Source of the DNA: Bacteroidota bacterium
Lineage (GTDB): Bacteria > Bacteroidota > Bacteroidia > Chitinophagales > Saprospiraceae
Direction of reading: 5' to 3'
Length of the DNA: 64,000 nt
NCBI GenBank assembly: GCA_039028895.1
Contig: JBCCHF010000013.1
Location: 4,360-68,359, forward strand
The notes beneath the pieces were generated by a model. It searched no databases. It had not been told where the DNA came from and saw only the letters and a list, made by a program, of their open reading frames with translations. The position numbers were made by a program, and so were the translations under genes. This document shows, piece by piece, positions 31,681-57,296 of this stretch; position 1 is the first letter of the stretch, and each line of letters opens with the position of its first letter.

Positions 31681-34305
31681 TTATATTTTAATTAACCTGG
31701 CGGAATTCCAGGTTTGAAATCCTTTTATTTCGATAAAGTACATACCATTCATCCATTCTTTGATATCGAGGTCAATACTATTAACACCTGGTTGTAACTC
31801 AACCACGATTTCATCCATTATCTTTCCGGTAAGAGAAGTAATTACGATAGTAGCATGTTCTATCCCATCACTTACGATCATTACTGAAGCATCGTGATTG
31901 GCAGGATTAGGATGAACTTCAACCAATCCTTCATGTACTTCGATTTTAACAGCTTCAACAGGGCTGTAGGTGTAAGTGTCATCAAGATCTACTTGTTTTA
32001 GCCTGTAGTAACTGGTGCCTGAAAATGGCGAACGATCAGTGGCGCTGTAGTAGATCACATCAGTTGAGTTGCCAGCGGCATATACGATTTCCAATAAATC
32101 CCAATCAATCCCGTTCTTACTTTTTTGCACTTCGTAATGGCTGGAATTAATTTCTGTTGCGGTAGCCCAGGTAACCAGCACTTCCGTCTTTTTGGCTTCA
32201 GCCTGGAAGTAAATAAACTCTACAGGGAAATTGGTTCCCAAAACCTGGAAACAATCGGTGCAGGTCCATGAATTGCTTTGAAAGCCAGGTCCACAACCGG
32301 GGCCTGCAAAAACAGTCACATCATAGAGGCCTGAAGGCGCATTTATAGGGAGGTCAAGAGAGAAGTCAAAATTCGTCTCGTCAGCAGCATCACCGAATGC
32401 GGTGAAAACAAAACCATCTTTGGAGAATTCTGCACAAGTGGTGATTCCTGGGGTGAAAGTTGTTCCAACACCGTTAATGGTCGAAGTTACTGTTGTGCCA
32501 GGGTCAGCTGTTGGTTGCATAACCTCCAGCCTTGGACTACACTCAATAGATGCATTCCAGCCTTCGCGCGTATTGGCACCATCAGCATAAAACGCAAATG
32601 TCAAACATCCGCTTATATCTTTTGCTGAAATCTGCATGCCCTGGAGATCTCCAGATCCATTTGGGATAGGATCATCTCTGTCCCAGCACCAGCCGACTGT
32701 AGCTCCTCCTGGTGAAGGGATCACCGGCGAGAATTCATCTGGCCCATCATAGACCAATAACTGATCGTAACAGTTGGTGCCGTTGTTTTCCATACTAAAT
32801 GTATTGAATGTAATAGTAACAACGTTTCCAGGAACATCAGGACATATAGTTTGTGTTAAATTGGTTGAATTAGGATAGTCTCCAAGCGGGCCTCCGATAT
32901 CATAATAGTTTCCACCACAGATGAAAGGATTGAGGACCGTAAAACAATCGTTACAGGTCCATGCAGTCCCTTCGCAATTAAATCCTCGATAGATGGTTAC
33001 ATCATAGTCGCCGGGAGTCGCATCAAACGGGATAACAAAACTACCGTTGAAAACAAAATTGCTTGAAGCTGATCCTGTTATCTGATAAACCTCGTTACCC
33101 AGATTAAATTCTACACAGGTTGTCATTCCCGGAACAAAGTCGGTCCCCGCTCCAATAATAGCAAAGTTCGCTGTTGTGCCTGGATTGGCATTTTCTGGTG
33201 TAATTGAAATCGGGTCCGGCTCATCCACAGAAAAAGATGCAATTTCAGTGCATCCTGCAAGGTCAGTAACTGTGACAGAATATGAACCGACTATCAGAAC
33301 TGTAGGATCTTCAAAACTTGAACCGTTGCTCCATGCAAAATCGTAAGGTGGCGTACCGCCAGTCACTGTTAAATCTATTGAACCATTAGGGCATCCAGTG
33401 CAGGTGGCATCAGATACTATTCCATTGACATTCATTGGAATACATATGGTAAAACAATTAGTGCAACCCCAAGCATCTCCACTACAACCGGGCCCTTGGT
33501 AAAGTGATACGTCATATTGTCCTGGGGGAGCATTCGGAGGTATGGGCCAATCACCTGAAAAATTGGTGTTATCAAATGATTCTCCTGAAAAACTATAAGT
33601 TTGATTACCATTAGTTACTTCTACACAAGTTGTAACACCGGGAATGAAGTTTGTTTGAGCACCAAAAAGAACCATGCCAACTGTCGACCCCTGATTGCCA
33701 TGAGTTGGTAAAACGGTAAGCGGTTCTGGTTGAGTAACGGTATAACTTTCAAATGACGGACAACCAGCTGCATCAGTAATGGTCACATCATATTGACCTG
33801 CGCCTATATTGGCTAAAGATTGGGTGTTTGCTCCATTGCTCCAATTGAAATTATACGGTGGTGTTCCGCCGAATACATTGAGATTTACAGCACCATCGGT
33901 ACAGCCAAAACAAGTAGCGGGAACCGGGGCACCCAGGATATTTTTAGGCGCACAAATGGAAACACAATCCTCGCAACTCCATGAAGGACCACTACAACCA
34001 GGCCCCTGGTAAATGGTCAGGTCATACGGGCCGGTAGATGCAAAAATTGGAATTGTAACAAATCCGTTATACTCAGTACTACTTGTGGCAGAACCAGTTA
34101 CGGTGAATACAGCGAAATTATTACTGATCTCCACACAAGCTGTAGTACCGGGGATAAATGTTGTTCCAGTGCCCGTGATAGTTATCAGGTTGTTGACTAC
34201 TCCAGCATCCAAATATTGAGGGGCAACAGAAATCGATTGTCCCTGGATCTGGCTAGTAAGGCAGCAGGTCAGTAATATAGATAAGATTAGGTAAAGATGT
34301 CTCAA
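31681..34305 (-). CDS. Large T9SS-secreted cell-surface protein (Cys-knot Ig-like modules, SprB repeats, CUB-like domain, type-A sorting domain)
   Basis: 874 aa, TTG start, signal peptide MRHLYLILSILLTCCLTSQIQGQ. Four modules end in the pattern GPGCSG..W.C..CF. Two SprB-type repeats (CFGCTDGAVNLNVFGGTPPYNFNWSNG, CTGCPNGSIDLTVTGGTPPYDFAWSNG). CUB-like segment (GGNYYDIGGPLGDYPNS...CYDQLLVYDG). C-terminal T9SS sorting domain (VEVHPNPANHDASVMIV...GMYFIEIKG). Confidence 0.8.
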   Translation of the reverse strand: MRHLYLILSILLTCCLTSQIQGQSISVAPQYLDAGVVNNLITITGTGTTFIPGTTACVEISNNFAVFTVTGSATSSTEYNGFVTIPIFASTGPYDLTIYQGPGCSGPSWSCEDCVSICAPKNILGAPVPATCFGCTDGAVNLNVFGGTPPYNFNWSNGANTQSLANIGAGQYDVTITDAAGCPSFESYTVTQPEPLTVLPTHGNQGSTVGMVLFGAQTNFIPGVTTCVEVTNGNQTYSFSGESFDNTNFSGDWPIPPNAPPGQYDVSLYQGPGCSGDAWGCTNCFTICIPMNVNGIVSDATCTGCPNGSIDLTVTGGTPPYDFAWSNGSSFEDPTVLIVGSYSVTVTDLAGCTEIASFSVDEPDPISITPENANPGTTANFAIIGAGTDFVPGMTTCVEFNLGNEVYQITGSASSNFVFNGSFVIPFDATPGDYDVTIYRGFNCEGTAWTCNDCFTVLNPFICGGNYYDIGGPLGDYPNSTNLTQTICPDVPGNVVTITFNTFSMENNGTNCYDQLLVYDGPDEFSPVIPSPGGATVGWCWDRDDPIPNGSGDLQGMQISAKDISGCLTFAFYADGANTREGWNASIECSPRLEVMQPTADPGTTVTSTINGVGTTFTPGITTCAEFSKDGFVFTAFGDAADETNFDFSLDLPINAPSGLYDVTVFAGPGCGPGFQSNSWTCTDCFQVLGTNFPVEFIYFQAEAKKTEVLVTWATATEINSSHYEVQKSKNGIDWDLLEIVYAAGNSTDVIYYSATDRSPFSGTSYYRLKQVDLDDTYTYSPVEAVKIEVHEGLVEVHPNPANHDASVMIVSDGIEHATIVITSLTGKIMDEIVVELQPGVNSIDLDIKEWMNGMYFIEIKGFQTWNSARLIKI

Positions 34306-34609: not shown

Positions 34610-37237
34610 TTATCTGATTTTGGTAAATCTCAAAGGTTGCCAGTTTTGTTCTCCTTCAATCGAAATGAAGTAGACGCCATTTGGCCATCCGTGAATATCA
34701 AGATCAAAAACCTGTGTACCAATGGTTACGGATTGCTCCCAGGTTTGCAAGGTTTTACCACTTATGTCGGTCAACTTGATTTTGATATCCTCACTCCATA
34801 GACTTGAGATAACAAGAGATGCCCCTTGCCTAACCGGATTCGGATAAATCTCAATCACAGAAGCTTCTTGGCCAAATTTAACCACTTCTACTTCACTGTA
34901 AGAAAAATCGCCATCAATGTCGACTTGCCTAATGCGGTAGTAGTTGTTTTGCTTTAATGGCTCTTCGTCAGTCAGGTGGTACTCAGAAATTGATGTGGTG
35001 TTTCCGGCAGCGGAAACCCGGCCTATCTCTTCCCAGCTATGACCATCCTGGCTTCTTTCCACTCCAAAATAGTCGCTGTCGACTTCAGTGGCAGTCGACC
35101 AAAGCAACTGGATGTCAGTTGCTCGTGGAACAGCCTTGAAACTCAGCCATTCGACCGAGAGTAACGGAGGAAGTACCTGGAAACAGTTAACACAGTTCCA
35201 TGCAGCCATCTGGAAGGTACCATCCGTACAGCCCGGACCTTCATAAATAGTGGCATTATACAGGCCTTGTGAAGCACCAAGTGGGATATTAAGTGTAGCT
35301 GTAAATGAAGTTGCACTACTCGCCGCACCTGTCATTTGATAAGTTTCTCCACCCATAGTAATCTCTGCACAAGTCGTGAAACCGGGGTTGAAGTTAGTGC
35401 CGAATCCGGTAATTTCTACCATAACATTCGAACCACGTGTACCGGAAGAAGGATTAAAAACGATATCCTGGTTGCATTGGACAACAAATGCCCAACCACC
35501 TCTTGTGCCAGCGCCATCAGAGCTAAAGTTGAAAGTCAGACAGCCGGAAGGATCGGATGATGTAATACTTACCCCTTCCAGATTACCTGAACCGTTCATA
35601 GATGCATCATCCTGGTCCCAGCACCAACCGTCTGTTGTGCCATTCGGAGATGAGATAACAGGGGCTCCGGTATTATCACCGTCCCAAATCGTTAATTCGT
35701 CAAGACAGTTGTCTCCGTCATTCTCGATGTCAAAAGAAGTGAATAATACGGATACGATCTCTCCAACATTCTGTGGACAAATGGTCCAGGTATCATTGGT
35801 GTTGTCAAGATAGTCGCCAAATTGACCGCCATTGTCATAAATGGTAGCCCCACAATTCAGAATATCGTTTACAGTAAAACAATCTGTACACGCCCAATTT
35901 GTACCCATACAACCAGACTCGTAAATCGTGGCATCGTATGATCCTGGGGTTGCGCCCAATGGTAAATTAAAATCCGCAGTGAACAAGATGGCATTATCTG
36001 CACTACCGGTTATTGAATAAGTATCAGTGCCATTGGTTAATTCCAGACAAGTTGTTGAGACTGGATCAAAAGTGGTTCCAACTCCAGTGAGAATAAGATT
36101 TATGGTTGTTCCGGGGTCTCCGTTATCCGGATTGATAGAAATCGGGTCTGGTTCAGTTATCATGAATGAAGCCGTAGCGGTACACTCACCTGCATCGGTA
36201 ACTGTCACACTATAAGAGCCAGACTCCAATCCGTTAGGGTCTTGTAACATTGCCCCATTACTCCAGTTGTAGGTGAATGGAGGTAGCCCTCCGCTAACGG
36301 TCAAATCTATGGAACCATCTGCACAAACAGCACAACTTGCATCTGTAACTACCCCACTTAAGGTCATTGGATCGCAGATAACAAAACAATCAACGCAAGA
36401 CCATTCCTCACCAGAACATCCTGGTCCAGAGAAAATACTGACATCATAAGCACCTGGGGTTGCACCCATCGGGATATCAAGGTCAGCGTTAAAATCAATG
36501 GCTGAACTGGCTGTTCCGGTAAATGAATAGGTATCAGTGCCATTGGAAAGCTGGACACAATCGGTCATACCTGGATTAAACAACGGGATATCTGCTGTAG
36601 CAGCTAATCCAACCGTACTGCCTGGGTCACCATTTATCGGGGTGACGGAAATAGCTTCCGGTTCGTTAATCGTATAATCTCTGACAGCTTCACAACCATT
36701 GGCATCTGCAATGGTTACAGCGTAGTTTCCTGCACCTACACCGGTCAGATTTTGATCTGTAGAGCCGTTGCTCCAATCAAATGTATATGGGAAAGCGCCA
36801 CCAAAAACACCGAGAGTAACACCACCGTCAGTACATTGGTAACATGAAGCATCCGTAGGATTTCCAAAAATGTTGAAAGGTGCGCAAATGGAGAAACACC
36901 CTACACAACTCCACGAGGTTCCAGAGCATCCAGGGCCTTCATAAACAATTACATCATACGATCCTGGAAGAGAAAATGGCGGGATAGTCAGTAAACCTGA
37001 AAATTCTGTTGCAGACGATGCTGTACCACTAATAGTCAAACTGGTAAAACCACCCGAAATCTCAGCGCATACTGTTGTCCCGGGAATAAAATTGGTGCCA
37101 ACCCCGGTAATATTGATGACCATGTTTGATGCACCCTGTTGACCATTATCAGGAGAAACATTTGAGATAATTTGGGAAATTCCCAGAAAAGGAATCAGCA
37201 GAATTACTGCTGCGAGGAGTAAAATTCTTGGTTTCAA
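34610..37237 (-). CDS. Paralogous large T9SS-secreted cell-surface protein (same architecture as 31681..34305)
   Basis: 875 aa, TTG start, signal peptide MKPRILLLAAVILLIPFLGISQ. Collinear with the neighbour at roughly half identical residues by eye (e.g. GTNFIPGTTVCAEISGG..., CYQCTDGGVTLGVFGGAFPYTFDWSNG, CUB-like GATIYDNGGQFGDY...CLDELTIWDG). T9SS sorting domain IEIYPNPVRQGASLVIS...GVYFISIEG. Confidence 0.8.
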   Translation of the reverse strand: MKPRILLLAAVILLIPFLGISQIISNVSPDNGQQGASNMVINITGVGTNFIPGTTVCAEISGGFTSLTISGTASSATEFSGLLTIPPFSLPGSYDVIVYEGPGCSGTSWSCVGCFSICAPFNIFGNPTDASCYQCTDGGVTLGVFGGAFPYTFDWSNGSTDQNLTGVGAGNYAVTIADANGCEAVRDYTINEPEAISVTPINGDPGSTVGLAATADIPLFNPGMTDCVQLSNGTDTYSFTGTASSAIDFNADLDIPMGATPGAYDVSIFSGPGCSGEEWSCVDCFVICDPMTLSGVVTDASCAVCADGSIDLTVSGGLPPFTYNWSNGAMLQDPNGLESGSYSVTVTDAGECTATASFMITEPDPISINPDNGDPGTTINLILTGVGTTFDPVSTTCLELTNGTDTYSITGSADNAILFTADFNLPLGATPGSYDATIYESGCMGTNWACTDCFTVNDILNCGATIYDNGGQFGDYLDNTNDTWTICPQNVGEIVSVLFTSFDIENDGDNCLDELTIWDGDNTGAPVISSPNGTTDGWCWDQDDASMNGSGNLEGVSITSSDPSGCLTFNFSSDGAGTRGGWAFVVQCNQDIVFNPSSGTRGSNVMVEITGFGTNFNPGFTTCAEITMGGETYQMTGAASSATSFTATLNIPLGASQGLYNATIYEGPGCTDGTFQMAAWNCVNCFQVLPPLLSVEWLSFKAVPRATDIQLLWSTATEVDSDYFGVERSQDGHSWEEIGRVSAAGNTTSISEYHLTDEEPLKQNNYYRIRQVDIDGDFSYSEVEVVKFGQEASVIEIYPNPVRQGASLVISSLWSEDIKIKLTDISGKTLQTWEQSVTIGTQVFDLDIHGWPNGVYFISIEGEQNWQPLRFTKIR

Positions 37238-37517: not shown

Positions 37518-38468
37518 ATGAAAAATTTTCTTAATCACCTTTATTTCAATGAATTGAAAAGGGGCATCATAGAGGTGATGCTTTATTTCGAGGTGTTTTC
37601 ATATCCAATGAGCCGTGAAGAAGTTTTTCGTACGGTTAATCAAATTAACACTAATCAGGATCAGGTCAATGCAGAAATTGATGAATTGATCAATGAATCC
37701 ATTATTTATGAAAATGGTGGTTTTCTCATGACCAGACCAAAACCTGAGTGGGCTGAAGAGCGAAAAATCAAGAATCGAATGGCAGATCAGTATATTGAAA
37801 AAGCATATCGCATGGGCCGCCTGATTGGGTACTTCCCCTTTGTGCGGGCTGTAATGATATCCGGTTCGCTGTCAAAACATTGGATGACAGAGGATGGTGA
37901 CGTTGATTTTTTTATCGTTACCGAAAAGAGAAGACTCTGGATCGCGCGCACCCTGCTCGTATTATTCAAAAAAATATTCCTGCTAAATTCACATAAGTAC
38001 TTCTGCGTGAACTATTTTGTGGATGTTGATCACCTGGAAATAGAAGAAAAGAACAGGTTCACAGCCTCAGAGATCGTTACGTTACTTCCAGTAGTCAACA
38101 AGCCATTGTATTTGGAATTTTTGAAAGCAAATCAATGGATCAGGGGTATTTACCCAAATTTCCCCGTAAGGGATACTAGTAATACTACACCACTTAAAGC
38201 TTCGCTGCCCAAACTGATTATAGAAAAAATGCTGTCAACCCGCTTTGGCGACTGGCTTGATCGCTCATTTCTAAAGATGACTCTGAAACACTGGAATAAA
38301 AAGTTTGGTCATATGGATAAGGAGGAATTTGAAGTAGCGATGAAATCAAGAACATATGTTTCAAAACATCATCCTAACGCATTTCAAGCCAGAGTGCTTG
38401 AGGCAATGGCTAATAACCAGGTTCAATTTGAAGCATCCATTCTAAAAAAGATGCCAATGAGAAGCTAA
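37518..38468 (+). CDS. Hypothetical protein with wHTH-like N-terminus and polymerase-beta-type nucleotidyltransferase-like motif
   Basis: 316 aa. MISGSLSKHWMTEDGDVDFFIVT fits the G-S...D-x-D nucleotidyltransferase signature. The N-terminal ~70 aa (YPMSREEVFRTV...IDELINESIIYENGGFL) look wHTH-like. It is the first gene of the rSAM operon. The assignment is weak. Confidence 0.4.
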   Translation: MKNFLNHLYFNELKRGIIEVMLYFEVFSYPMSREEVFRTVNQINTNQDQVNAEIDELINESIIYENGGFLMTRPKPEWAEERKIKNRMADQYIEKAYRMGRLIGYFPFVRAVMISGSLSKHWMTEDGDVDFFIVTEKRRLWIARTLLVLFKKIFLLNSHKYFCVNYFVDVDHLEIEEKNRFTASEIVTLLPVVNKPLYLEFLKANQWIRGIYPNFPVRDTSNTTPLKASLPKLIIEKMLSTRFGDWLDRSFLKMTLKHWNKKFGHMDKEEFEVAMKSRTYVSKHHPNAFQARVLEAMANNQVQFEASILKKMPMRS

Positions 38469-38501
38469 CCGCTTATCTTTGCAATAAAGGTTCCCTGTTC
38501 A

Positions 38502-39968
38502 ATGGCAAATATTCTTTTTACCCACTCATATTTTTATCGATTTGACGAGAAGCAATGGGCTATGAAACAGCCATATCCGCCATATGGTACACTCTATGCT
38601 GCCGCAAAAATGCGGGAGGAGGGTCACCATGTAGCACTTTTTGACACTAACCTTGTGGTTTCTCCTGTTGAGATAAAGCCCATTCTGAAAAGTGAGCAAC
38701 CCGACTATCTGGTAATCTATGATGACGGGTTTAACTACCTGACTAAGATGTGCCTGACCAATATGCGGGAAGCTGCTTTTGAGTTGATCAAATTTGGTAA
38801 AGAAAACGCTTGTAAGGTAATTGTCTCGAGCTCTGATTCGACAGATCACCCTGATTTTTATCTTGAAAAAGGGGCTGATTTTATTCTTTTAGGAGAAGGA
38901 GAAGAAACGCTCAGTGAACTGGTCACAGCCATTGAGTCCGGCCAGCAGGATATGAGTTCTATTCTGGGTATTTGTTACCATTCCGAAACATTCGTTAAAA
39001 ATCCGAGAAGGCCCGTTATTCGCAATCTCGACAGCTTGCCTGACCCAGCATGGGATCTGGTAGATATCGATATGTATCGCAAGGTCTGGATGGAAGGAAA
39101 TGGATATTTTTCTTTAAATATTGCGACAACCAGGGGGTGCCCCTTTAAGTGTAATTGGTGTGCAAAACCCATTTATGGCAATCGATATAATTCCCGTTCA
39201 CCGGAAAGGGTAGCTAACGAAATCGAAATGCTGGTGTCAAAATTTGGTGCCCGCCATTTTTGGTTTAGTGATGATATATTCGGTTTAAAACCCGGATGGG
39301 TGCAATCGTTCAGAGATATTGTAAAGGCCAAAAATCTGCAGTTTAGCTATAAGATTCAGTCCAGGGTAGATTTGCTGCTTCAGGAAGATACGATCGCAGC
39401 ACTTGCTCAATCGGGTTTGAAAACCGTGTGGGTAGGTGCCGAATCAGGATCGCAGAAAATCCTCGATGCCATGGACAAAGGCACCAAGATCGAACAGATT
39501 TATGAAGCGACAGAATTACTGAAGCGCAAAGGTGTCGAGGTAGGATTTTTCCTTCAGTTTGGCTATCTCGGTGAAACAAGAGAAGATATTTCCAGTACTA
39601 TACAGATGGTGCTCGACTGCATGCCTGATGATATCGGGATATCTGTTTCTTACCCCTTGCCCGGCACCAAATTTTTCGAAATGGTGAAGGCCCAATTGGA
39701 TGACAAGCAAAACTGGTCGCACTCAGATGATCTGGCGATGATGTATAAAGGCACCTTCAGCCCTGATTTCTATCGACGTCTCCATCGGTTTGTCCATAAA
39801 ACATTCAGAAAACACCAGGGATTCGCAAATTTGAAAGGCATTTTAATGAACCCTACGGCAGTTAACCGATCTAAACTCAGGTCAGCGTTGGCTACAGTAT
39901 ATTATATCCCGGCAGCTGCCATCGACAATTACAAACTCAGACTTCTCGAAAAGCAAAGTGTTTCCTGA
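38502..39968 (+). CDS. B12-binding-domain radical SAM enzyme (rSAM-1)
   Basis: 488 aa. N-terminal cobalamin-binding-type Rossmann segment (ILFTHSYFYRFDEKQWAMKQPYPPYGTLYAAAKMREEGHHVALFD). CxxxCxxC cluster at C213/C217/C220 (TTRGCPFKCNWCAKP; tgc 39138..39140). Confidence 0.85.
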   Translation: MANILFTHSYFYRFDEKQWAMKQPYPPYGTLYAAAKMREEGHHVALFDTNLVVSPVEIKPILKSEQPDYLVIYDDGFNYLTKMCLTNMREAAFELIKFGKENACKVIVSSSDSTDHPDFYLEKGADFILLGEGEETLSELVTAIESGQQDMSSILGICYHSETFVKNPRRPVIRNLDSLPDPAWDLVDIDMYRKVWMEGNGYFSLNIATTRGCPFKCNWCAKPIYGNRYNSRSPERVANEIEMLVSKFGARHFWFSDDIFGLKPGWVQSFRDIVKAKNLQFSYKIQSRVDLLLQEDTIAALAQSGLKTVWVGAESGSQKILDAMDKGTKIEQIYEATELLKRKGVEVGFFLQFGYLGETREDISSTIQMVLDCMPDDIGISVSYPLPGTKFFEMVKAQLDDKQNWSHSDDLAMMYKGTFSPDFYRRLHRFVHKTFRKHQGFANLKGILMNPTAVNRSKLRSALATVYYIPAAAIDNYKLRLLEKQSVS

Positions 39969-40768
39969 TTATCAAAGCTGCTTTTGACCATATTGCCAAA
40001 GATTACGACCAGTCATTTTCCGATACTATAACGGGAAAACGACAGCGAGCACTTGTTCATGCCTACCTGGCAGAGTATTTTGTTGACATTCCCGGCCAAA
40101 AAGTGCTGGAGCTAAATTGCGGTACGGGTATAGATGCCTGCTGGATAGCGGCAAGAGGGCATACGGTTCTCGCAACTGATGTTTCAAAGGAAATGGTCAA
40201 TTTGACAGATATAAGAGTGGACCGCTTAGGGTTTGAAAAATATATTGATACCAGTGTTTGTGGGTTTTCCGAGATTCATACTTTGAATGACAAGGGCCCA
40301 TTCAATCTCATATTCTCTAATTTTGGAGGCTTGAATTGCATTGATTCGAATAGTATGGCTATGCTATCTATGGCATTACGAAAAATGCTTAAGCCTGGCG
40401 GCAGTCTCATCATAGTTTTGATGGGGCGTAAGTGTTGGTGGGAAAGCCTCTATTTTTTGTTAAAAGGCAACCCAAAAGAAGCATTTCGAAGGAAGAATGG
40501 AGGACCGGTTGAAGCAAATGTTGGAGACAAAAAGATCCTTACATGGTATTATGATCCGCAAGAATATTCAAACCTTTTTTCAAACCAATTCAAGACAAAA
40601 GTTATTAAACCTGTAGGCATTGCTTTACCGCCTTCCTACATGGATAGCATTTTTTCAAAAAGGAAATGGTTGATGAATTGGTTGACAAAATGTGAAAATA
40701 GGTTCCACAACAAATCTTACCTGGCCAAATGGTCGGACCATTACTTAATTCACCTTGAAGCGATCTGA
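39968..40768 (+). CDS. Class I SAM-dependent methyltransferase (MT-1; true start unclear, no ATG upstream of motif I)
   Basis: The ORF track starts at GTG 40103 (M/VLELNCGTG), which is motif I itself. The same frame is open back to 39965 and encodes IIKAAFDHIAKDYDQSFSDTITGKRQRALVHAYLAEYFVDIPGQK, a typical MTase N-terminus. The only candidate starts there are CTG 39965 and ATT 39968, which overlap the rSAM-1 TGA. Confidence 0.7.
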   Translation: MIKAAFDHIAKDYDQSFSDTITGKRQRALVHAYLAEYFVDIPGQKVLELNCGTGIDACWIAARGHTVLATDVSKEMVNLTDIRVDRLGFEKYIDTSVCGFSEIHTLNDKGPFNLIFSNFGGLNCIDSNSMAMLSMALRKMLKPGGSLIIVLMGRKCWWESLYFLLKGNPKEAFRRKNGGPVEANVGDKKILTWYYDPQEYSNLFSNQFKTKVIKPVGIALPPSYMDSIFSKRKWLMNWLTKCENRFHNKSYLAKWSDHYLIHLEAI

Positions 40769-42174
40769 TGGAGGTGTTGTTTACACATGGTTATTATATT
40801 GAGGAAGATCCGAAGGAGCAGGAGATCATGCGCCCTTACCCGCCTTTGGGTATTCTTTACCTGTCAGCGTGGCTGGAAAAGCATGGCGTTGATAATGAAG
40901 TGTACGACACTACATTTTCCAATAAAAAAGCGCATAAGGCATTTCTTGTCAAAAATAAACCCGGAATCCTCGCCATCTATACCAATCTGATGACCAAAGT
41001 CAATGTCATCGAATTGGTCAAATACATCAGGGCCGAACCTGATTTGAACGAAACCTTTATTGTCATAGGTGGACCTGACGTTACTTATAATATCGAAAAT
41101 TACCTGGGTTCAGGAGCGAATGTCATCGTTTTTGGAGAGGGTGAACAGACCATGCTCGAGATTGTAAACTCTGTCAAAAATGGGGTGCGGTCAGCGTTAT
41201 TCCACATTCCCGGGGTGGCATTCTTCGATGAAGGAGGTGATGTTGTAAAAACGGAAGCCAGGAAACGCATCCGCCCGGTAGACGGTCTGCCTATCCCTAA
41301 CAGGAAGAAGATTGACCTTAACAAATACCTGGAAGTCTGGAAAACACATCACGGTAAGAGTACTGTTTCAATCAGCACCCAAAGAGGATGTCCGTATACC
41401 TGCAGATGGTGTAGTACTGCTGTTTATGGACAGAGTTACAGACGTCGTTCCCCTGAAGTGGTCGTCTCTGAAATGAAATACCTGAAGGAAAACTATAACC
41501 CTGATAGCCTTTGGTTTGTGGATGATGTATTTACGGTCAGTCATAAATGGCTGAAAACTTTCAGAGATGCCTTGGAAAAAGCCAATATCAATATTCCTTT
41601 TGAATGTATAACCCGCGCAGATCGCCTTGACCCAGAAGTCATCAGCGTATTGAAAGCAAGTGGCTGTTTTCGGGTCTGGATTGGTGCTGAAAGTGGCTCA
41701 CAAAAAATCATAGATGCCATGGACAGGCGGGTAGATGTTAACCATGTCCGCAATATGATAATCGAAGCCAGGCAACAAGGACTTGAAGCCGGTACGTTCA
41801 TCATGTTAGGCTATCCCGGGGAAACCGAAACGGATATTTATGAAACGGTCAATCACCTAAAAATATCCAATCCCGATCTGTTCACAATAACAGTGGCTTA
41901 CCCGATTAAAGGAACAGGTCTTTACGAGGAAATTGAAGCCCAGCGCCTTAATAACCTGGATTGGCAAACCAGCACTGATCGCCAGATCGACTTTAAGCGG
42001 ACTTATCCAAGAAAGTATTATGATTACGCGGTACGGTGGGTGGTCAATTCGGTAAACTACAATAAACAGAAGTTGAATGGCAGACAATTGACTCCCCATG
42101 CATTGAAAATGCTTGCCAAAAGTTCCCTGGCCAGGGCAGGTATGATCTTTCATCGACAATTTGGCAAAGGATAG
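40768..42174 (+). CDS. B12-binding-domain radical SAM enzyme (rSAM-2, paralogue of rSAM-1)
   Basis: 468 aa. TGATG stop/start overlap at 40766..40770. N-terminus VLFTHGYYIEEDPKEQEIMRPYPPLGILYLSAWLEKHG parallels rSAM-1. Cluster C208/C212/C215 (STQRGCPYTCRWCST; tgt 41389..41391). Confidence 0.85.
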   Translation: MEVLFTHGYYIEEDPKEQEIMRPYPPLGILYLSAWLEKHGVDNEVYDTTFSNKKAHKAFLVKNKPGILAIYTNLMTKVNVIELVKYIRAEPDLNETFIVIGGPDVTYNIENYLGSGANVIVFGEGEQTMLEIVNSVKNGVRSALFHIPGVAFFDEGGDVVKTEARKRIRPVDGLPIPNRKKIDLNKYLEVWKTHHGKSTVSISTQRGCPYTCRWCSTAVYGQSYRRRSPEVVVSEMKYLKENYNPDSLWFVDDVFTVSHKWLKTFRDALEKANINIPFECITRADRLDPEVISVLKASGCFRVWIGAESGSQKIIDAMDRRVDVNHVRNMIIEARQQGLEAGTFIMLGYPGETETDIYETVNHLKISNPDLFTITVAYPIKGTGLYEEIEAQRLNNLDWQTSTDRQIDFKRTYPRKYYDYAVRWVVNSVNYNKQKLNGRQLTPHALKMLAKSSLARAGMIFHRQFGKG

Positions 42175-42177
42175 ATT

Positions 42178-42957
42178 ATGAAGGCTTTTCTTGAGAAATT
42201 TCCTGGAAATGGCGGTGTCTATTGCCTTTCAAAACCTGACAACAGTTTCGAAGACAGCTACATTGCTATTCGCAAAAAAGAGCAACGCGTCCTGTCTGAC
42301 GAGCAAGTCAGTCAATTACCCCGAGTGGATAGGTCTAATCCTCATTTTGACGAATGGCAAATCAGAAATCGTTCATTCGAGCGTGTCATCAATTATCTGA
42401 TGGATGATCCCAAAAGCCAACTACGGATTCTAGACCTGGGGTGCGGTAATGGCTGGTTTACCCACCGACTAGCTGCATTAGGCCATTTGGAAGTATTGGG
42501 CCTGGATATCAATATGATTGAATTGAAACAGGCTGCCAGGATCTTCACCACTGAGAAATGCCGTTTTGCCTACGGAGATATCGCTGTTTTGGACTTTGAT
42601 AACCTAAAGTTTGATCGCATTTTTCTGAATGCTTCAGTTCAATATTTCTCAAATCTTACCAGACTCCTCAAAAGGTTGTTAAACCTGCTCAACAAAGGAG
42701 GGGAGATTCATATTATCGATTCGCCATTTTATAAGTCTGTTGATATCCCCGCTGCAAAGGCACGTTCTTTTTCCTATTACAAAACCATGGGTTTTGAGAC
42801 TATGAGTACCAGCTATTTTCATCATAGTTTGGAAGAAATTAGCCAGTTTGATCCTTTCTATCTGTACCAACCATCCACTGGATTCAAGAAATTTTTGGAT
42901 AGATTTGGGAAAAAAGACACCCCGTTTCCATGGATCAGGATCTCAAAGGAAAATTAG
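42178..42957 (+). CDS. Class I SAM-dependent methyltransferase (MT-2)
   Basis: 259 aa, starting 3 nt after the rSAM-2 stop. Motif I is ILDLGCGNGWFTHRLA and the post-I acidic residue sits in VLGLDIN. Confidence 0.8.
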   Translation: MKAFLEKFPGNGGVYCLSKPDNSFEDSYIAIRKKEQRVLSDEQVSQLPRVDRSNPHFDEWQIRNRSFERVINYLMDDPKSQLRILDLGCGNGWFTHRLAALGHLEVLGLDINMIELKQAARIFTTEKCRFAYGDIAVLDFDNLKFDRIFLNASVQYFSNLTRLLKRLLNLLNKGGEIHIIDSPFYKSVDIPAAKARSFSYYKTMGFETMSTSYFHHSLEEISQFDPFYLYQPSTGFKKFLDRFGKKDTPFPWIRISKEN

Positions 42958-44462
42958 ACTTCACACTGCCGAATAGGGTGTTCATCACATTGGTTGTAAT
43001 GATTTTGGGTGTCAGGTTCTTACATTTTGGCGAATTGATTGATAATCCCCACGCCTGGAGGCAATGTGATACGGCAAACTATATTTTCGATTTTTTTAAA
43101 AATGGCATCGATATCTTTGAGCCTGCTGTATGCTGGATGGGGGCTCATAAGACCGTAATCCTTGAGTTCCCGTTACCGGAAGCTATGGTAGCTGTTTTCT
43201 ACCACGTTTTTGGAGAACATCATTGGGTCGCCCGGATGTTTTTCCTGCTGTGCTTTTGCGGAGCAGCCTATTATTTTTTTCTAATTATACTAGAACTTTT
43301 CGGTAAAACCAGGGCCAGGGTCGCTACTTTGATTTACCTTTCCCTACCATTGTCCATGTTTTATTCCAGAGCGATCCATATCGACTTCTTTGCTGTTTTT
43401 ATGGCGCATGGAATGTTTTTTCATTGGATGAAAGCCGTAAAAAATCAGGAGGCCAAGCATTGGATAGCAGGGGGTCTGTTTACTACTCTAGCATTTTTAG
43501 TAAAAGCACCTTATGCCTTTTTTCTCGCCTTGCCCCTTTTGATGATGGCAATACAGGAAAAACAGTTTGTTAAAAGTTTGAAGTGGACTTTTCTTTTAAT
43601 GTTGCCGATCATTCTATTTGTGCTTTGGCGTAGTTATGCTACCGGGGTAAACAGCTTGGCACCTGACTGGCATTACCTTGAAGCTTACCGCAAATTTGAT
43701 GAGAATACGTTCTGGTTTTTCGGCACTCTCGAACAACGACTTTCTTTATGGAATTGGCTAAGACTGGGTGAACGGCTGGCATTTGATGTCGTTGGTCATG
43801 CTGGGGTCTTGTTTGTCATTATTGGGTTTTTCCAGATGTGGTGGCTGAAACAGTACCCTTTTCTACTCGCATGGATGCTCGGGTTGTTGGTCTACTTATG
43901 TACCTTTTTTAACCTCAATCTGGTTCATGATTATTACCAAATCCCATTTTTACCAATTGCTTCTACCCTGATTACAATAGGCATTTTCTCCCTTTCGGGA
44001 AATGCAATGGTAGTCAGAATGAACATAAGTCGTTTTGCTTTTTTCGGGGGATTAGGCATCGTAATACTTGGCAATATCACTAATGCAGAACTGCGCTATT
44101 ATAAAACCGAAGATCAAAGGGTGCTTCAAGAAATAGGGGAGATCATAGAAGGGACAACCCCAACATCAGCGTTACCAGTAATCACCTATAATGATTTTGA
44201 TGTGCGTAATCCGCAAATCCTTTACCGAGCCAGAAGAAATGGTTGGTCAGTACCACTTCGAAACTGGAATGCAGAAGCCATAAACTTATTGACAGAAAAT
44301 GAAGGGGCTACACATTTTGTTTTTGTCGGTCCTGGTCCACCGGACGGGGCAATTGGGAAATTTACTCGGCGATTGAATTTGATTAATTCAACGAAACTGA
44401 ACAACACATATCTGAAAGTCTTTATTTGGACCCTATCGTATCAGGATGAAATTGAAAATTGA
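42930..44462 (+). CDS. Polytopic GT-C-fold glycosyltransferase, PMT_2/ArnT-like (polyprenyl-phosphate-sugar dependent)
   Basis: 510 aa with about 11-12 TM helices. The first periplasmic loop motif AWRQCDTANYIFDFF resembles the WRQxDTA motif of ArnT/PMT_2-type enzymes. A C-terminal soluble domain is present. It overlaps MT-2 by 28 nt. Confidence 0.6.
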   Translation: MDQDLKGKLDFTLPNRVFITLVVMILGVRFLHFGELIDNPHAWRQCDTANYIFDFFKNGIDIFEPAVCWMGAHKTVILEFPLPEAMVAVFYHVFGEHHWVARMFFLLCFCGAAYYFFLIILELFGKTRARVATLIYLSLPLSMFYSRAIHIDFFAVFMAHGMFFHWMKAVKNQEAKHWIAGGLFTTLAFLVKAPYAFFLALPLLMMAIQEKQFVKSLKWTFLLMLPIILFVLWRSYATGVNSLAPDWHYLEAYRKFDENTFWFFGTLEQRLSLWNWLRLGERLAFDVVGHAGVLFVIIGFFQMWWLKQYPFLLAWMLGLLVYLCTFFNLNLVHDYYQIPFLPIASTLITIGIFSLSGNAMVVRMNISRFAFFGGLGIVILGNITNAELRYYKTEDQRVLQEIGEIIEGTTPTSALPVITYNDFDVRNPQILYRARRNGWSVPLRNWNAEAINLLTENEGATHFVFVGPGPPDGAIGKFTRRLNLINSTKLNNTYLKVFIWTLSYQDEIEN

Positions 44463-45735: not shown

Positions 45736-47073
45736 TTATAACTCCAAACGTTGTGCCAAAGCAGAATAAAGCTTATTCTCTTTCGTCATAAACCTGTTTC
45801 TGAAGCTACTGCTTTGTGTATACGTCTGTTTGAAAACGGTTGAGGCCATGCGCGCATCTTTGGCGAGGTAAAGCCGTCCGCCATACTCAAGCACTATCCT
45901 GTCGAGTGCATCTAACATCGCAAAAAGTCCTTTTGTGATCTTGAAGTCAAGTGCCAATGTGTATCCTTGCATCGGAAAAGCGAGCGGACTTTGGTTGTGG
46001 CCGGGGCCCATGAGTTTCAAAACAGTCAGGAAAGATCCGAAACCAGAATCCCTGATTTTTGAAAGTAGTTCACTGATGCCTTTTTTTCCTTCTGATTGTG
46101 GTAACACGCATTGATATTGAGTAAAACCCTTCTTCCCATAGATCCTATTCCAGTGTAATAGACTGTCCAGTGGATAAAAATATGGTTCATAATGCACAAA
46201 GGATTGCTGGATATCTGCCCGTTGTCGTTGATAATAAAGAAAGTTAAAAGTCTTAATGCTAAATGAGTTTAAAAGCATTCCAGGAAGGAAAAAAGGAACA
46301 GAAATGGCCTTTTTTTTTCGAAACAAAAGGGGAGAAGCGGTATACTGCTCTGGGAGTTCCTCTACAGATGCATGTTCGCCATTGAGTAATAAGCCGCGGC
46401 CCAGTTTTTCGCCTTTGGCCATGCAGTCTATCCATGCCACCGAATAGGTGTCATCAACAGCATTATCGATTTTTTCCAGTGTTTCAGATAGCGTTTTTGT
46501 TTTATAACTGGTTTGCTTGATAAAGGCTGTTTGAACCTTTCGTAGCCTGAACGTAGCCGTTATGATGATGCCGGTCAATCCCATTCCACCACAAGTGGCC
46601 CAAAATAAAGCCGGGTTTTTAACTTTGCTGCATTCCACTACTTTCTCGTCTGCCTGGATTAACCGGAAGCTTTCGAGGAAATCGGAAAAACTGCCTTCCT
46701 TGTGATGGTTCTTCCCATGAATGTCTGCAGCAATGGCTCCCCCAACTGTAATGAACTTGGTGCCAGGAGACACACTTAGAAAAAATCCTTTTGGAACTAC
46801 CAGTTGTAAAATGTCAGCTAATAAAACTCCTGCCTGGCAGGTAATGATGCCGTTTTCTATATCAAAATCCAGAATCTGGTTCAGACTTAGCGTGCTAACC
46901 GTATTGTGAGCTAAAGCTGCATCGCCATAACACCTACCATTGCCGCGGGCGATCAAATTTCCTTTCTGGTTTAACCAGGTTTGTAGTTCATTAAGATGTC
47001 CAGGGTAATATAGGTTGGACTCCATTTTGGGATAATTGCCCCAATTGGCGATATGTTTCTTTTCAGAATGCAT
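45736..47073 (-). CDS. FAD-binding (PCMH-type) oxidoreductase, DprE1-like
   Basis: The ORF is 45736..47112. The Met at 47073 forms a TAATG overlap with the UbiA-like stop. NWGNYP...ARGNGRCYGDAAL parallels the GLGRSYGD segment of decaprenylphosphoryl-ribose oxidases. FAD_binding_4-like N-terminal half. Confidence 0.7.
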   Translation of the reverse strand: MHSEKKHIANWGNYPKMESNLYYPGHLNELQTWLNQKGNLIARGNGRCYGDAALAHNTVSTLSLNQILDFDIENGIITCQAGVLLADILQLVVPKGFFLSVSPGTKFITVGGAIAADIHGKNHHKEGSFSDFLESFRLIQADEKVVECSKVKNPALFWATCGGMGLTGIIITATFRLRKVQTAFIKQTSYKTKTLSETLEKIDNAVDDTYSVAWIDCMAKGEKLGRGLLLNGEHASVEELPEQYTASPLLFRKKKAISVPFFLPGMLLNSFSIKTFNFLYYQRQRADIQQSFVHYEPYFYPLDSLLHWNRIYGKKGFTQYQCVLPQSEGKKGISELLSKIRDSGFGSFLTVLKLMGPGHNQSPLAFPMQGYTLALDFKITKGLFAMLDALDRIVLEYGGRLYLAKDARMASTVFKQTYTQSSSFRNRFMTKENKLYSALAQRLEL

Positions 47074-47963
47074 TAAAAGACATACAATAAAAGTGCAAAG
47101 GTGATGATCCAAAGGAGCAGGATAAATCGCAAAACCGGATTTTGTAAAAATAGGCGAGTAGGTTGTCCACTTTCGCCATGAACAAAGGTTAATTGGAGGT
47201 ATTTCAGCATTCCGAAGATGACAAAGAAACTAGTGAAGTAGACATAGTTGTTGCCAATACGATCGGTAACTTCCGGTGATAAAGTATACATGAGATAAGC
47301 CACAGTAGTCACAGCTGACACAAAGACAATTGCAATATCGATGAATTGAAGATTATAGCCATTAAGCGCTGGACGAATATCAGTAGTGGTTTTTTCAGAA
47401 AGGATAAATTCATCGCGCCGCTTGCCTAGTCCGATCATCATCGCGCCGAGGAATGTCATGATGACAAGCCATTCCGAAATCGGAACATCCGCTAACTCAC
47501 CACCAGCGAAGATCCTTAACAGGAAACCCATCGCTAAGACGAAAAGGTCCACAAACGCAATTTTTTTCAAAAACAGGGTGTAAGAAATAGTCAGAACAAG
47601 ATAACTGCCAAGCAATATGCTGAATGTCGTTATTCCAATAGAGATCATCAAAACAAGCGCAATGACAAGGCACACCATTCCTGCGAAAATAGCCTCCTTG
47701 GAAGTAACCAGTCCGGCAGCTAATGGCCTCAATTTCTTTTTTGGATGTAGTCGATCAGCCTCAATGTCATAGTAGTCATTAAAAATATAGATGCTACTGG
47801 CCACTAGGCAAAAAGCGAAGAATCCAGCTAATAAAATAAGGACAAGAGACTGGTCAGTTATCACCTGGGCAAAGAATGCCGGCATAAAGATCAACAGGTT
47901 TTTGATCCATTGTTCCGGCCTGAGTAGGCGGATAATTGGCGGGATGGAAGCTTGCTGAGCCAT
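47073..47963 (-). CDS. UbiA-family prenyltransferase, decaprenyl-phosphate phosphoribosyltransferase-like
   Basis: 296 aa with about 8-9 TM helices. Asp-rich motif IFNDYYDIEADRLHPKKKLRPLAAG. Size and motif context resemble the DPPR-synthase branch of UbiA enzymes. Confidence 0.75.
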   Translation of the reverse strand: MAQQASIPPIIRLLRPEQWIKNLLIFMPAFFAQVITDQSLVLILLAGFFAFCLVASSIYIFNDYYDIEADRLHPKKKLRPLAAGLVTSKEAIFAGMVCLVIALVLMISIGITTFSILLGSYLVLTISYTLFLKKIAFVDLFVLAMGFLLRIFAGGELADVPISEWLVIMTFLGAMMIGLGKRRDEFILSEKTTTDIRPALNGYNLQFIDIAIVFVSAVTTVAYLMYTLSPEVTDRIGNNYVYFTSFFVIFGMLKYLQLTFVHGESGQPTRLFLQNPVLRFILLLWIITFALLLYVF

Positions 47964-53976: not shown

Positions 53977-54008
53977 GCCTGAAATTAAGGAATTACCCTA
54001 ATCGGTTG

Positions 54009-56617: not shown

Positions 56618-57296
56618 CAAAACAAGGACTACCTGGCGAAACAGGCTAAAAAGAATTGTTTTCCCCATCCTCGAAAAATGGTATCAAGGCTATAGTCAGA
56701 AAGAACGCACCTACAAATTCAAAGGATTGCGGGTAACCGTTCCGCCGACGGTGTTCCATCCGGGAGTATTTTTAAGTACGAAGATCTTTGCCAATTTCCT
56801 TGATAAGCTCGAGCTTCATGGTGCGAAGTTACTTGAACTGGGCTGTGGCAGTGGGCTATTGTCATTATATGCCTCCAAACGAGGCGCTGAAGTTACGGCA
56901 ACCGACATTAATCCGATCGCCATTAACGGATTAATCCACAGTAGTATCCAGAATGGTTTGAACATAGCGGCTCTTGAATCCGACTTGTTTGCGGACATTC
57001 CTGTTCAAATATTTGATTACATCCTGATCAATCCACCATACTACCCCAAAACACCAACCAGTTATAAGGAGCGTGCTTTTTATTGTGGGGTAGATTTCGA
57101 ATATTTCCACGCCCTCTTCCTTCAAATGCCTGCTTATATAAAAGAAGATTCAGAGGTGTACATGATCTTGTCAGAAGATTGTGATATTGAAAAAATTCTT
57201 CATATCGCTAAGGACAATAAATTCGAATTCAAGGAGGTACATCGCCAATCCAGGCGATGGGAAATGAATTATGTTTTTCAGCTGAGCTTCTGTTGA
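56607..57296 (+). CDS. NPPY-motif SAM methyltransferase (HemK/PrmC / RsmC-like small-domain type)
   Basis: 229 aa, with an 11-nt overlap with rSAM-3. Motif I is LLELGCGSGLLSLYASKRGAEVTATDIN. Motif IV is ILINPPYYP. Confidence 0.75.
   Translation: MLSSKTRTTWRNRLKRIVFPILEKWYQGYSQKERTYKFKGLRVTVPPTVFHPGVFLSTKIFANFLDKLELHGAKLLELGCGSGLLSLYASKRGAEVTATDINPIAINGLIHSSIQNGLNIAALESDLFADIPVQIFDYILINPPYYPKTPTSYKERAFYCGVDFEYFHALFLQMPAYIKEDSEVYMILSEDCDIEKILHIAKDNKFEFKEVHRQSRRWEMNYVFQLSFC

Follow-up and report, generated by a model that had tools for sequence, protein, structure and literature searches.

A conserved gene set with four B12-type radical-SAM enzymes and six methyltransferases in a putative surface-glycan locus of Saprospiraceae and related bacteria

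B12-dependent radical S-adenosylmethionine (SAM) enzymes take part in the known routes to antibiotics, cofactors, hopanoids and peptides, and one may ask what two of them are doing in a row with two methyltransferases, a nucleotidyltransferase-like protein and a membrane glycosyltransferase. The question is raised by six genes on a 64,000-nucleotide stretch of a Bacteroidota genome (Saprospiraceae; GenBank assembly GCA_039028895.1, contig JBCCHF010000013.1, positions 4,360 to 68,359 of the forward strand), which at its full length we call the window. We hold with moderate confidence that the six genes form the central part of a conserved, Wzy-dependent pathway of many genes, which makes and decorates a polyprenyl-phosphate-linked surface glycan, of the O-antigen, exopolysaccharide or glycoprotein-glycan type, and the module probably adds unusual methyl-type decorations to it. 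The system is real and widespread, common to many uncultured Bacteroidota, Ignavibacteria and Rhodothermales, and apparently uncharacterised; its chemistry is entirely inferred.

The genes appear in the open reading frame (ORF) calls as six closely packed frames on the + strand (37518-44462), in the order P1-rSAM1-MT1-rSAM2-MT2-GT-C (rSAM, radical-SAM enzyme; MT, methyltransferase; GT, glycosyltransferase; aa, amino acids):

37518-38468, + strand: P1, 316 aa, a winged-helix, a Pol-beta-type nucleotidyltransferase-like and a C-terminal helical domain, predicted soluble
38502-39968, + strand: rSAM1, 488 aa, B12-binding-domain radical SAM enzyme
39965-40768, + strand: MT1, about 267 aa, class I SAM methyltransferase (UbiE/Methyltransf_25-like), putative non-canonical start
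40768-42174, + strand: rSAM2, 468 aa, B12-binding radical SAM enzyme, ancient paralogue of rSAM1
42178-42957, + strand: MT2, 259 aa, class I SAM methyltransferase (Methyltransf_31/25/11)
42930-44462, + strand: GT-C, 510 aa, PMT_2, ArnT-like membrane glycosyltransferase with a C-terminal periplasmic alpha/beta domain

The first-pass annotation of this DNA had placed the six ORFs at the same coordinates and on the same strand, and its domain calls are likewise confirmed, by Pfam or, for P1, by motif and predicted fold. The junctions it gave stand for P1/rSAM1 (a 33-nt gap, 38468 to 38502), MT1/rSAM2 (TGATG, a 1-nt overlap, 40766-40770), rSAM2/MT2 (a 3-nt gap, 42174 to 42178) and MT2/GT-C (a 28-nt overlap, 42930-42957), and the "stop/start abutment" that it saw at 39966-39968, between rSAM1 and MT1, has to be corrected, most likely to a CTGA overlap. 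That junction merits a closer look. The MT1 frame offers no ATG, GTG or TTG ahead of 40103, and the conserved N-terminus of the protein, IIKAAFDHIAKDYD, lies in frame from 39965/39968; MT1 orthologues begin 2-8 residues ahead of an AFDxxAxxYD motif. The sequence at the rSAM1 stop is CCTGATTATC (39960-39975) in the window, and the same junction is found in the nearest relative, the locus L028 (CCTGATCATC, L028 6990-7005), the two sharing CCTGAT(T/C)ATC, while a further related locus, L029, has ATGA at the homologous place (L029 5404-5412). The MT1 start is most likely the CTG at 39965-39967, which would overlap the rSAM1 TGA as CTGA, the alternative being the ATT at 39968; we read it as a putative conserved non-canonical, translationally coupled start. 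Automatic gene callers shorten the protein, to 191 aa in L001 and 243 aa in L028. A frameshift fusion of rSAM1 with MT1 could also explain the absent start, and is less likely, given that rSAM1 ends where its orthologues end and that the L029 junction is ATGA. Throughout most of the related loci the two genes overlap or are separated by no more than 11 nt.

Promoter and terminator scans of the six-gene region gave nothing above chance, with no surplus of terminator-like sites within the unit. Neither an Rfam scan of the whole window nor a sensitive scan of the 5' intergenic region returned a cobalamin or SAM riboswitch, and a riboswitch-controlled operon was rejected on these empty scans. The six-gene arrangement is nonetheless far beyond chance, because the same arrangement recurs in other genomes.

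To what extent does it recur? We compared gene order in 26 related loci, 18 taken from species-representative genomes and eight from a contig index, which together span Saprospiraceae, Chitinophagales, Cytophagales, Cyclobacteriaceae, Flavobacteriales, Rhodothermales and Ignavibacteriaceae. P1 lies directly upstream of rSAM1 in most of them and MT1 follows rSAM1 in 21, so that the trio P1-rSAM1-MT1 is contiguous in most of the loci with sufficient flanks, in Bacteroidota, Rhodothermales and Ignavibacteriaceae alike. Next after the trio comes rSAM2 in 11 loci, and MT2 follows rSAM2 in four (L007, L010, L028, L029); MT2 also occurs without rSAM2 (L019, L022), and their pairing is not obligate, each being found without the other. 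The exact order of all six genes is met once, in L028, whose rSAM1 is 73% identical. Conservation of gene order outside this genome, which the first-pass annotation had put forward as a check, is thus strong.

The first-pass annotation had further taken the unit for a duplicated two-enzyme cassette of rSAM and MT. Its paralogy of rSAM1 and rSAM2 holds, the two being each other's closest paralogue (33% identity over 468 aa, E 3e-87), and the duplicated cassette does not, since the rSAM genes alone are paralogous. MT1 belongs to the Methyltransf_25 and Ubie_methyltran families of Pfam and MT2 to Methyltransf_31/25/11; they have the Rossmann core alone in common (E 0.003 over 120 aa), and rSAM2 and MT2 also occur apart. 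A tandem duplication of an rSAM+MT cassette is ruled out by this lack of relation beyond the fold. Judged from the alignments, the rSAM1/rSAM2 duplication is old and confined to the rSAM gene; we call it ancient because orthologues are 46-72% identical across phyla, as against 33% between the paralogues.

The window holds four rSAMs, as had been counted, the further two, rSAM3 and rSAM4, lying downstream of the six genes. Against Pfam cut-offs of 29.5 bits for Radical_SAM (PF04055) and 32.1 bits for B12-binding (PF02310), rSAM1 scores 77.5 bits for the former and rSAM2 82.9 bits; for the latter rSAM2 (43.3 bits) and rSAM4 (46.1 bits) lie above the cut-off and rSAM3 (25.3 bits) below it, and rSAM1 is taken up further on. 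The radical SAM core and the CxxxCxxC motif of class B enzymes are present in all four, the motif reading CPFKCNWC at residue 213 of rSAM1 and CPYTCRWC at residue 208 of rSAM2. Between rSAM4 and rSAM3 identity is 25% (E 1e-54). Orthologous groups are clean, with ratios of best to second-best bit score of at least 1.64, and comprise rSAM1 orthologues in 17 loci (50-72% identity), rSAM2 orthologues in nine (46-66%) and rSAM3 orthologues in nine (39-74%, with one outlier at 39%). Homologues of rSAM1 run into the thousands, with 64-73% identity, and bear the names of metagenome-assembled genomes of Bacteroidota, Aureispira and Ignavibacteriaceae; within the system no protein is better conserved than rSAM3, with up to 83% identity in L028.

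None of the four reaches the cut-off of any curated NCBIfam equivalog (BchE, HpnJ, HpnR, PhpK, MgmA/TIGR04014, AprD4, BzaD, TIGR04072 and the C-methylases of ribosomally synthesized and post-translationally modified peptides, RiPPs). The best scores, each over its cut-off, are 160/481 for rSAM1 (BchE), 157/600 for rSAM2 (PhpK-family), 125/578 for rSAM3 and 160/578 for rSAM4 (both HpnJ); the MgmA model gives 109/360 and AprD4 52-92/500. With all scores far under cut-off, these enzymes stand outside the curated housekeeping and characterised families, as the first-pass annotation had supposed. Among solved structures the nearest to rSAM1 by sequence is MgmA (9CCB, E 1e-22), with AprD4 second, and the nearest to rSAM2, rSAM3 and rSAM4 is AprD4 (6FD2, E 1e-10 to 1e-20; rSAM2 E 1e-19); the rSAMs also show a weak sequence match to CysS.

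P1 is the partner that points most directly to a substrate. It has no Pfam or NCBIfam match above threshold. An alignment of 33 homologues shows G116, S119, K120, D128, D130 and D169 to be invariant, and they make up the Pol-beta-type motif hG[GS]...D-x-D (G116-S..D128-x-D130) with D169 as third carboxylate; 29 of the 33 family members have sub-threshold NTP_transf_2 matches. Because sequence searches of the PDB gave no meaningful match for either P1 or GT-C, the structures of both were predicted. The AlphaFold (AF2) model of P1 is confident (predicted local distance difference test, pLDDT, 91), and its Foldseek matches, though weak, are all to Pol-beta-type nucleotidyltransferases (MNT, ANT(4'), AadA, LinB, GlnE, DrrA), with a probability of up to 0.98, none at E <= 0.001 and the best at about 7e-3. 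P1 is therefore best described as a putative, active-looking nucleotidyltransferase-fold protein on the strength of motif and model.

The P1 family has about 4,900 homologues, 383 of them representatives at E <= 1e-30 in a 50%-identity library, and in that library P1 domains are found fused to a GT4 glycosyltransferase (P0391), to a Bac_transf initiating phosphoglycosyl transferase (P0402) and to a class I methyltransferase (P0435). Two such fusions sit in classical polymer loci. One locus, L030, reads GT4, GT4, Wzy_C, [Bac_transf-P1], epimerase; the other, L031, reads Bac_transf(-), GT4(-), Wzy_C-TPR, RgpF(-), Wzy_C, [GT4-P1], an rSAM1 orthologue (57%), an SGNH-like protein, a carbamoyltransferase and an rSAM4 orthologue (49%), and its rSAM1 orthologue has no adjoining MT1. 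We regard these fusions as the strongest evidence that the P1/rSAM module would act in the assembly of a polyprenyl-phosphate-linked glycan and not on lipids or peptides. Where a lipid-linked sugar, a glycan or a membrane lipid had been proposed as substrate, it is the glycan or lipid-linked sugar that is best supported, by locus context and because relatives of P1 are fused to a GT4, an initiating sugar transferase and a methyltransferase; the membrane lipid is less favoured and is weighed below.

At the other end of the unit, GT-C matches PMT_2 (56.1 bits, Pfam) and carries the NCBI name GT39-like. Its AF2 model (pLDDT 92) finds 23 GT-C-fold matches at E <= 1e-3 in Foldseek, headed by ArnT (5EZM; template-modelling score, TM, 0.64/0.61; E 2.5e-8) and followed by STT3, ALG12/9, AftA and PglB. 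The fold is that of a polytopic GT-C protein with a periplasmic loop following the first membrane helix, and in that loop, among 32 homologues, D38 and D47 are nearly invariant and P40, H41, W43, R44, Q45 and E79 invariant; the conserved acidic residues are presumably catalytic. Close by, on the opposite strand, are two genes that overlap by 40 nt and hold identical positions in L028:

45736-47112, - strand: DprE1-like flavin adenine dinucleotide (FAD) oxidase, FAD_binding_4; NCBIfam decaprenylphosphoryl-beta-D-ribose oxidase, 407 bits vs a cut-off of 500
47073-47963, - strand: UbiA-type polyprenyl-phosphate phosphoribosyltransferase-like protein, UbiA; NCBIfam decaprenyl-phosphate phosphoribosyltransferase, 208.7 vs 234 and 204.9 vs 207 bits

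Such a pair is reminiscent of the mycobacterial decaprenyl-phospho-arabinose pathway, with its DPPR synthase, Rv3807c, DprE1/E2 and Emb/Aft GT-Cs. The UbiA-type synthase has no HAD domain, and a PAP2 gene (58824-59720) lies in the same locus, which might encode a lipid-phosphate or a phosphoribose phosphatase; a GT-C homologue, P0260, bears an N-terminal HAD-IB phosphatase domain, a fusion that would fit the need for a phosphoribose phosphatase. GT-C directly follows MT2 in the window and L028 only, and in most other loci an SGNH-like gene precedes GT-C and no UbiA or DprE1 gene adjoins it. On gene content a pentofuranose donor is a reasonable inference for this genome and not for the whole family, because UbiA and DprE1 are absent beside GT-C in most loci. 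Candidates for the sugar delivered are ribo-, arabino- or 2-keto-pentofuranose.

The six genes are not the self-contained unit that they had seemed. They are one segment of a set of about 30 kb (about 27-60 kb of the window) which holds two further B12-rSAMs, making four in all, together with a Wzz-like protein, two Wzy_C proteins (one with TPR), two GT4 enzymes, SGNH-like proteins, a sulfotransferase, a PAP2 protein and six methyltransferases:

27252-28208, + strand: Wzz-like protein, two terminal membrane helices
28205-29668, + strand: Wzy_C protein, Wzy_C domain
29655-31529, - strand: Wzy_C + TPR protein, C-terminal TPR domain
31681-34305 and 34610-37237, - strand: two SprB-repeat proteins, 874/875 aa, type IX secretion C-terminal domains, 47% identical paralogues
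47970-48731, - strand: FkbM-family methyltransferase, divergent from MT3
48748-49536, + strand: MT3, class I methyltransferase, divergent partner of FkbM
49549-50994, + strand: SGNH/AlgX-like membrane protein, 481 aa
51009-52130, - strand: GT4a, GT4 glycosyltransferase
52143-52961, + strand: sulfotransferase, by domain match
52927-53976, - strand: SGNH-like membrane-anchored protein, 349 aa, no Pfam match, blocks GDSFT, GND and DPHLN
53949-55067, + strand: GT4b, GT4 glycosyltransferase
55067-57296, + strand: rSAM3 and MT4, overlapping; rSAM3 516 aa, B12-binding; MT4 229 aa, HemK/PrmC/MTS-type, NPPY motif
57278-58696, - strand: rSAM4, 472 aa, B12-binding, converging on rSAM3-MT4
58824-59720, - strand: PAP2 phosphatase-family membrane protein, PAP2 domain

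The NPPY motif of MT4 is typical of N-methyltransferases. Membrane helices are predicted in GT-C, the Wzy_C proteins, the UbiA-type protein and the Wzz-like protein, and none in P1, the rSAMs, the methyltransferases, the GT4 enzymes or the sulfotransferase.

Much of this wider set travels with the module. L028 runs Wzz-like, Wzy_C, Wzy_C-TPR(-), P1, rSAM1, MT1, rSAM2, MT2, GT-C, DprE1-like(-), UbiA(-), GT4b, rSAM3, MT4, and L029 and L010 retain the six-gene order with insertions (SGNH, or FkbM/MT3 plus SGNH). The Wzy_C-TPR gene lies divergently upstream of P1 in eight loci (L002, L003, L004, L007, L008, L010, L028, L029); in the window the SprB-repeat pair is inserted between the two. Eight loci likewise keep rSAM3 and MT4 adjacent (L008, L011, L013, L014, L016, L022, L027, L028). 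The divergent FkbM/MT3 pair stands beside MT1 in L002 and L010, the SGNH/AlgX-like gene stands directly upstream of GT-C in L010, L026 and L029, and L026 keeps the order GT-C, GT4b, GT4a(-), sulfotransferase, rSAM3. In one 6.2-Mb genome the set stands in two parts, L002 and L026, with 180 kb between them. Ignavibacterial versions are found among GT2, GT4, GT9 and GT87 genes and an ATP-binding cassette (ABC) transporter.

Some further observations concern the neighbours. Ignavibacteriaceae loci (L003 21214-21464 and 19967-21214; L008; L022) have a GT87-family GT-C, an rSAM-SPASM protein and a 591-aa ABC transporter, and the PMT_2-type GT-C, SGNH and sulfotransferase genes are absent there. The 349-aa SGNH-like protein recurs with the system in L027 (237-1253) and in L031 (13538-14482), where it immediately follows the rSAM1 orthologue. 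In L010 (3478-6078) and L029 (13373-16948), too, SprB-type type IX secretion genes are found within or next to the locus, and other type IX cargo flanks L002, L026 and L027; this proximity may reflect a functional link or chance. A CotH-kinase-domain protein (24661-27189, - strand) adjoins the Wzz-like gene, and two very large CotH proteins with type IX tails stand beside the module in L002 (13871-21479). The window's first 19 kb have no relation to the locus and include, at 801-8853, an unrelated cluster of two S8 subtilase genes flanking a 963-aa TPR-CHAT protein.

How might such a set work? In the pathway that we favour, GT4 enzymes would assemble the repeat on its lipid carrier in the cytoplasm, where the soluble rSAM1 and rSAM2, and with them rSAM3 and rSAM4, would turn a 5'-deoxyadenosyl radical on a nucleotide- or lipid-linked precursor. 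The most likely outcome would be cobalamin-mediated transfer of methyl groups to unactivated carbons of a sugar or sugar substituent, and the class I methyltransferases would methylate O or N by polar chemistry. The overlapping stop/start junction of rSAM1 and MT1 may serve to have the two produced in fixed proportion. P1 would work with the glycan-assembly enzymes, either putting a nucleotide handle on the substrate or transferring an activated substituent. After flipping, GT-C would add a side-chain sugar in the periplasm, here probably a pentofuranose whose polyprenyl-phosphate donor would come from the UbiA-type synthase and the DprE1-like oxidase, and the Wzy_C, Wzy_C-TPR and Wzz-like proteins would polymerise or ligate the product.

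A more detailed version, which we put forward as speculation and find doubtful as a whole, has the locus make a glycan with carbon-linked alkyl decorations: C-methyl sugars, or O-methyl groups that rSAM/MT pairs resembling CysQ/CysS lengthen to O-ethyl or O-isopropyl. P1 would give rSAM1 its nucleotide handle, Wzy_C-TPR would be the ligase that joins the product with lipid A-core or with SprB-type type IX proteins, and the whole would be a conserved envelope trait of Bacteroidota, Ignavibacteria and Rhodothermota.

Several points weigh against the proposal of a methylated, Wzy-dependent glycan. We know of no bacterial surface polysaccharide that is modified by a B12-radical-SAM enzyme, and so of no direct precedent. 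The window holds no Wzx-type flippase and no initiating transferase, no MATE or SMR/GtrA-type donor flippase among its Pfam-scanned ORFs, and no DprE2-type short-chain reductase, which L028 lacks too; UbiA and DprE1-like genes stand beside GT-C in the window and L028 only. All 18 loci from species-representative genomes are from metagenome-assembled genomes, with no cultured host. Homologues of P1 (48-50% identity) also stand by themselves, without an rSAM or glycan gene in the surrounding 10 kb (L023 10001-10921, L024 10001-10915, L025 3311-4231), and the P1 family is therefore not confined to the module. The B12-binding score of rSAM1, at 26.5 bits, falls below the Pfam cut-off of 32.1; most rSAM1 homologues carry a precomputed PF02310 match. 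Finally, the nearest solved structure for rSAM2, rSAM3 and rSAM4, AprD4, is a sugar dehydratase that does not methylate, and methylation is to that extent not established.

The last two points belong to an alternative that we consider possible, if on the unlikely side, namely that the glycan pathway is the same and that its radical chemistry is not methylation: dehydration or deoxygenation of the AprD4 type, epimerisation, ring contraction as by HpnJ or cyclisation as by BchE, with the methyltransferases acting independently. AprD4 shows that a B12-binding domain can be present without use of cobalamin, and it is also the second-nearest structure to rSAM1; the best NCBIfam matches include BchE and HpnJ, which are not methylases; and the rSAM1 orthologue that stands without MT1 in L031 is consistent with an independent role. 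These similarities are, however, all remote (E 1e-10 to 1e-22, NCBIfam scores a quarter to a third of the cut-offs), and no AprD3-like reductase partner was seen. The near-universal coupled pairing of rSAM1 with MT1 and of rSAM3 with MT4 suggests linked methyl chemistry instead, and methylation remains for us the likeliest radical reaction, on two grounds: methylases make up the majority of the characterised enzymes with this architecture, and the methyltransferase partners are coupled.

It is improbable, in our judgement, that the substrate of the system is a membrane lipid or the very polyprenyl carrier, modified for instance by mid-chain or terminal methylation or by hopanoid-like or ether-lipid chemistry, with GT-C and GT4 making a glycolipid head group. 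UbiA, PAP2, GT4 and GT-C proteins are also typical of glycolipid pathways such as those to phosphatidylinositol mannosides and lipomannan (PIM/LM), and remote matches to the hopanoid enzymes HpnJ and HpnR and the lipid-associated TIGR04072 could be read in the same sense, but all these scores are far under cut-off and the window is without squalene-hopene cyclase, fatty-acid or ether-lipid genes. Both the P1 fusions and the surroundings, with their Wzz-like, Wzy_C, Bac_transf and RgpF genes, speak for the assembly of a polymer.

Nor do we expect the substrate to be a protein or peptide, a reading we hold to be quite improbable, in which the type IX adhesins would be C- or N-methylated, or an unrecognised precursor peptide modified after the manner of proteusin RiPPs or methyl-coenzyme M reductase. 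MgmA, the nearest solved relative of rSAM1, is a protein glutamine C-methyltransferase, MT4 is HemK/PrmC-like with its NPPY, SprB-repeat type IX proteins lie in or beside the locus (window, L010, L029), and an rSAM-SPASM gene is nearby in Ignavibacteria. The likeness to MgmA is remote, though, and the conserved partners, which are glycan enzymes, and the fusions of P1 to glycosyltransferases speak against this reading; we saw neither a precursor-peptide gene nor a leader peptidase nor a RiPP recognition element, and type IX cargo genes are so abundant in these genomes that their adjacency may be chance.

Last, a secondary-metabolite cluster with an aminoglycoside-like or glycolipid product, and with P1 as an ANT-like self-resistance or tailoring nucleotidyltransferase, is very improbable: GT4, several B12-rSAMs and N-/O-methyltransferases do form the tailoring set of gentamicin and fortimicin, and P1 does resemble ANT(4'), AadA and LinB in fold, but genes for a cyclitol synthase, an aminotransferase or a dehydrogenase are absent, partners of the Wzy_C and Wzz-like kind are not typical of such clusters, and rSAM orthologues that keep 50-74% identity and a similar gene order over three phyla, besides thousands of homologues in metagenomes, fit a conserved envelope function better than a patchy cluster.

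Two candidates of another kind were also rejected. PADLOC defence models gave generic domain-level matches alone, to rSAM and methyltransferase domains and nothing for P1 or GT-C, which removes an anti-phage defence system; and a local phosphonate pathway (Fom1/Fom3-like or PhpK-like) falls because no coding frame in the window or in 27 loci contains the phosphoenolpyruvate (PEP)-mutase motif EDKx5NS.

If these enzymes do modify a glycan, as we favour, their products would add to the chemistry known for sugars of the cell surface, a function would be gained for three or four unassigned rSAM subfamilies and for a large nucleotidyltransferase-like family that has no Pfam model (the 383 representatives above), and the envelope of these bacteria would be cobalamin-dependent. 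The hosts are abundant, mostly uncultured bacteria of sludge, sediment and water, and in their Wzy-type glycan loci we find three to four distinct, slowly evolving rSAM subfamilies whose orthologues are 50-74% identical across phyla, bar the one outlier at 39%.

How, then, does the locus compare with known systems? The first-pass annotation could match the gene order to no known pathway, which holds for the rSAM part and not for the GT-C end. In Citrobacter youngae O1/O2, O antigens receive alpha-pentofuranose side chains in the periplasm through the joint work of an ArnT-like GT-C, a UbiA-type polyprenyl phosphoribose synthase, a phosphatase and a flippase (Kelly et al. 2024, PMC11127046), and epimerases of the DprE1/E2 type switch the sugar to arabinofuranose (PMC11127046). 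Part of that three-component pathway (PMC11127046) is recognisable in the glycan locus of the window, where a UbiA-type gene, a DprE1-like oxidase and an ArnT-like GT-C stand side by side with PAP2 in the same locus, and GT-C resembles its counterpart in ArnT-like architecture and C-terminal periplasmic domain. The window differs in that its synthase has no fused HAD, in the lack of a MATE/SMR flippase and of DprE2, and in that most related loci have no UbiA/DprE1 beside GT-C; none of the published pentofuranose systems (PMC11127046), unlike the window, contains radical-SAM enzymes. The GT-C part of the locus would extend this recently described side-chain pathway to Bacteroidota.

With Wzy-dependent assembly of O antigens and exopolysaccharides (Wzz, Wzy, WaaL/PglL-type Wzy_C) the window has in common its Wzz-like and two Wzy_C proteins, and the related loci their Bac_transf, GT4 and RgpF; it differs in the C-terminal TPR of one Wzy_C protein and in the missing Wzx and initiating transferase. 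To our knowledge, and as far as we have found, four B12-rSAMs and six methyltransferases are not part of any described Wzy-type pathway. In the openly searchable literature on B12/radical SAM together with O-antigen ligase, Bacteroidetes, Ignavibacteria, Saprospiraceae, sulfotransferase, type IX secretion or nucleotidyltransferase we found no description of the rSAM part, and the words polysaccharide, glycan and lipid are absent from a 2026 review of B12-rSAM enzymes. With no curated family model, no characterised relative closer than E 1e-22 and no paper found, the rSAM/MT/P1 part matches no described system, as the first reading had it.

Its closest analogues are the class B methylases GenK/GenD1 (gentamicin), Fom3 (fosfomycin) and CysS (cystobactamid), which share the CxxxCxxC core and an N-terminal domain of B12-binding type, the latter scoring below the Pfam cut-off in rSAM1 and rSAM3. 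Fom3 is paired with the cytidylyltransferase Fom1 and CysS with the O-methyltransferase CysQ, and the rSAMs of the window likewise adjoin a nucleotidyltransferase-like protein and polar methyltransferases. They differ from the GenK, Fom3 and CysS families in matching no curated model, in lacking a PEP mutase and in a context of envelope glycan assembly and not of antibiotics, and P1 differs from Fom1 in being a Pol-beta-fold protein and not a Fom1-type cytidylyltransferase. MgmA (9CCB), the glutamine C-methyltransferase of methyl-coenzyme M reductase, and AprD4 (6FD2), the apramycin C3' dehydratase, are the nearest solved structures and remote ones, with host, context and partners all different. 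We rate the GT-C/UbiA/DprE1-like part as probably belonging to a known type of pathway, and the rSAM/MT/P1 part as what appears to be glycan tailoring with an unprecedented battery of radical-SAM enzymes.

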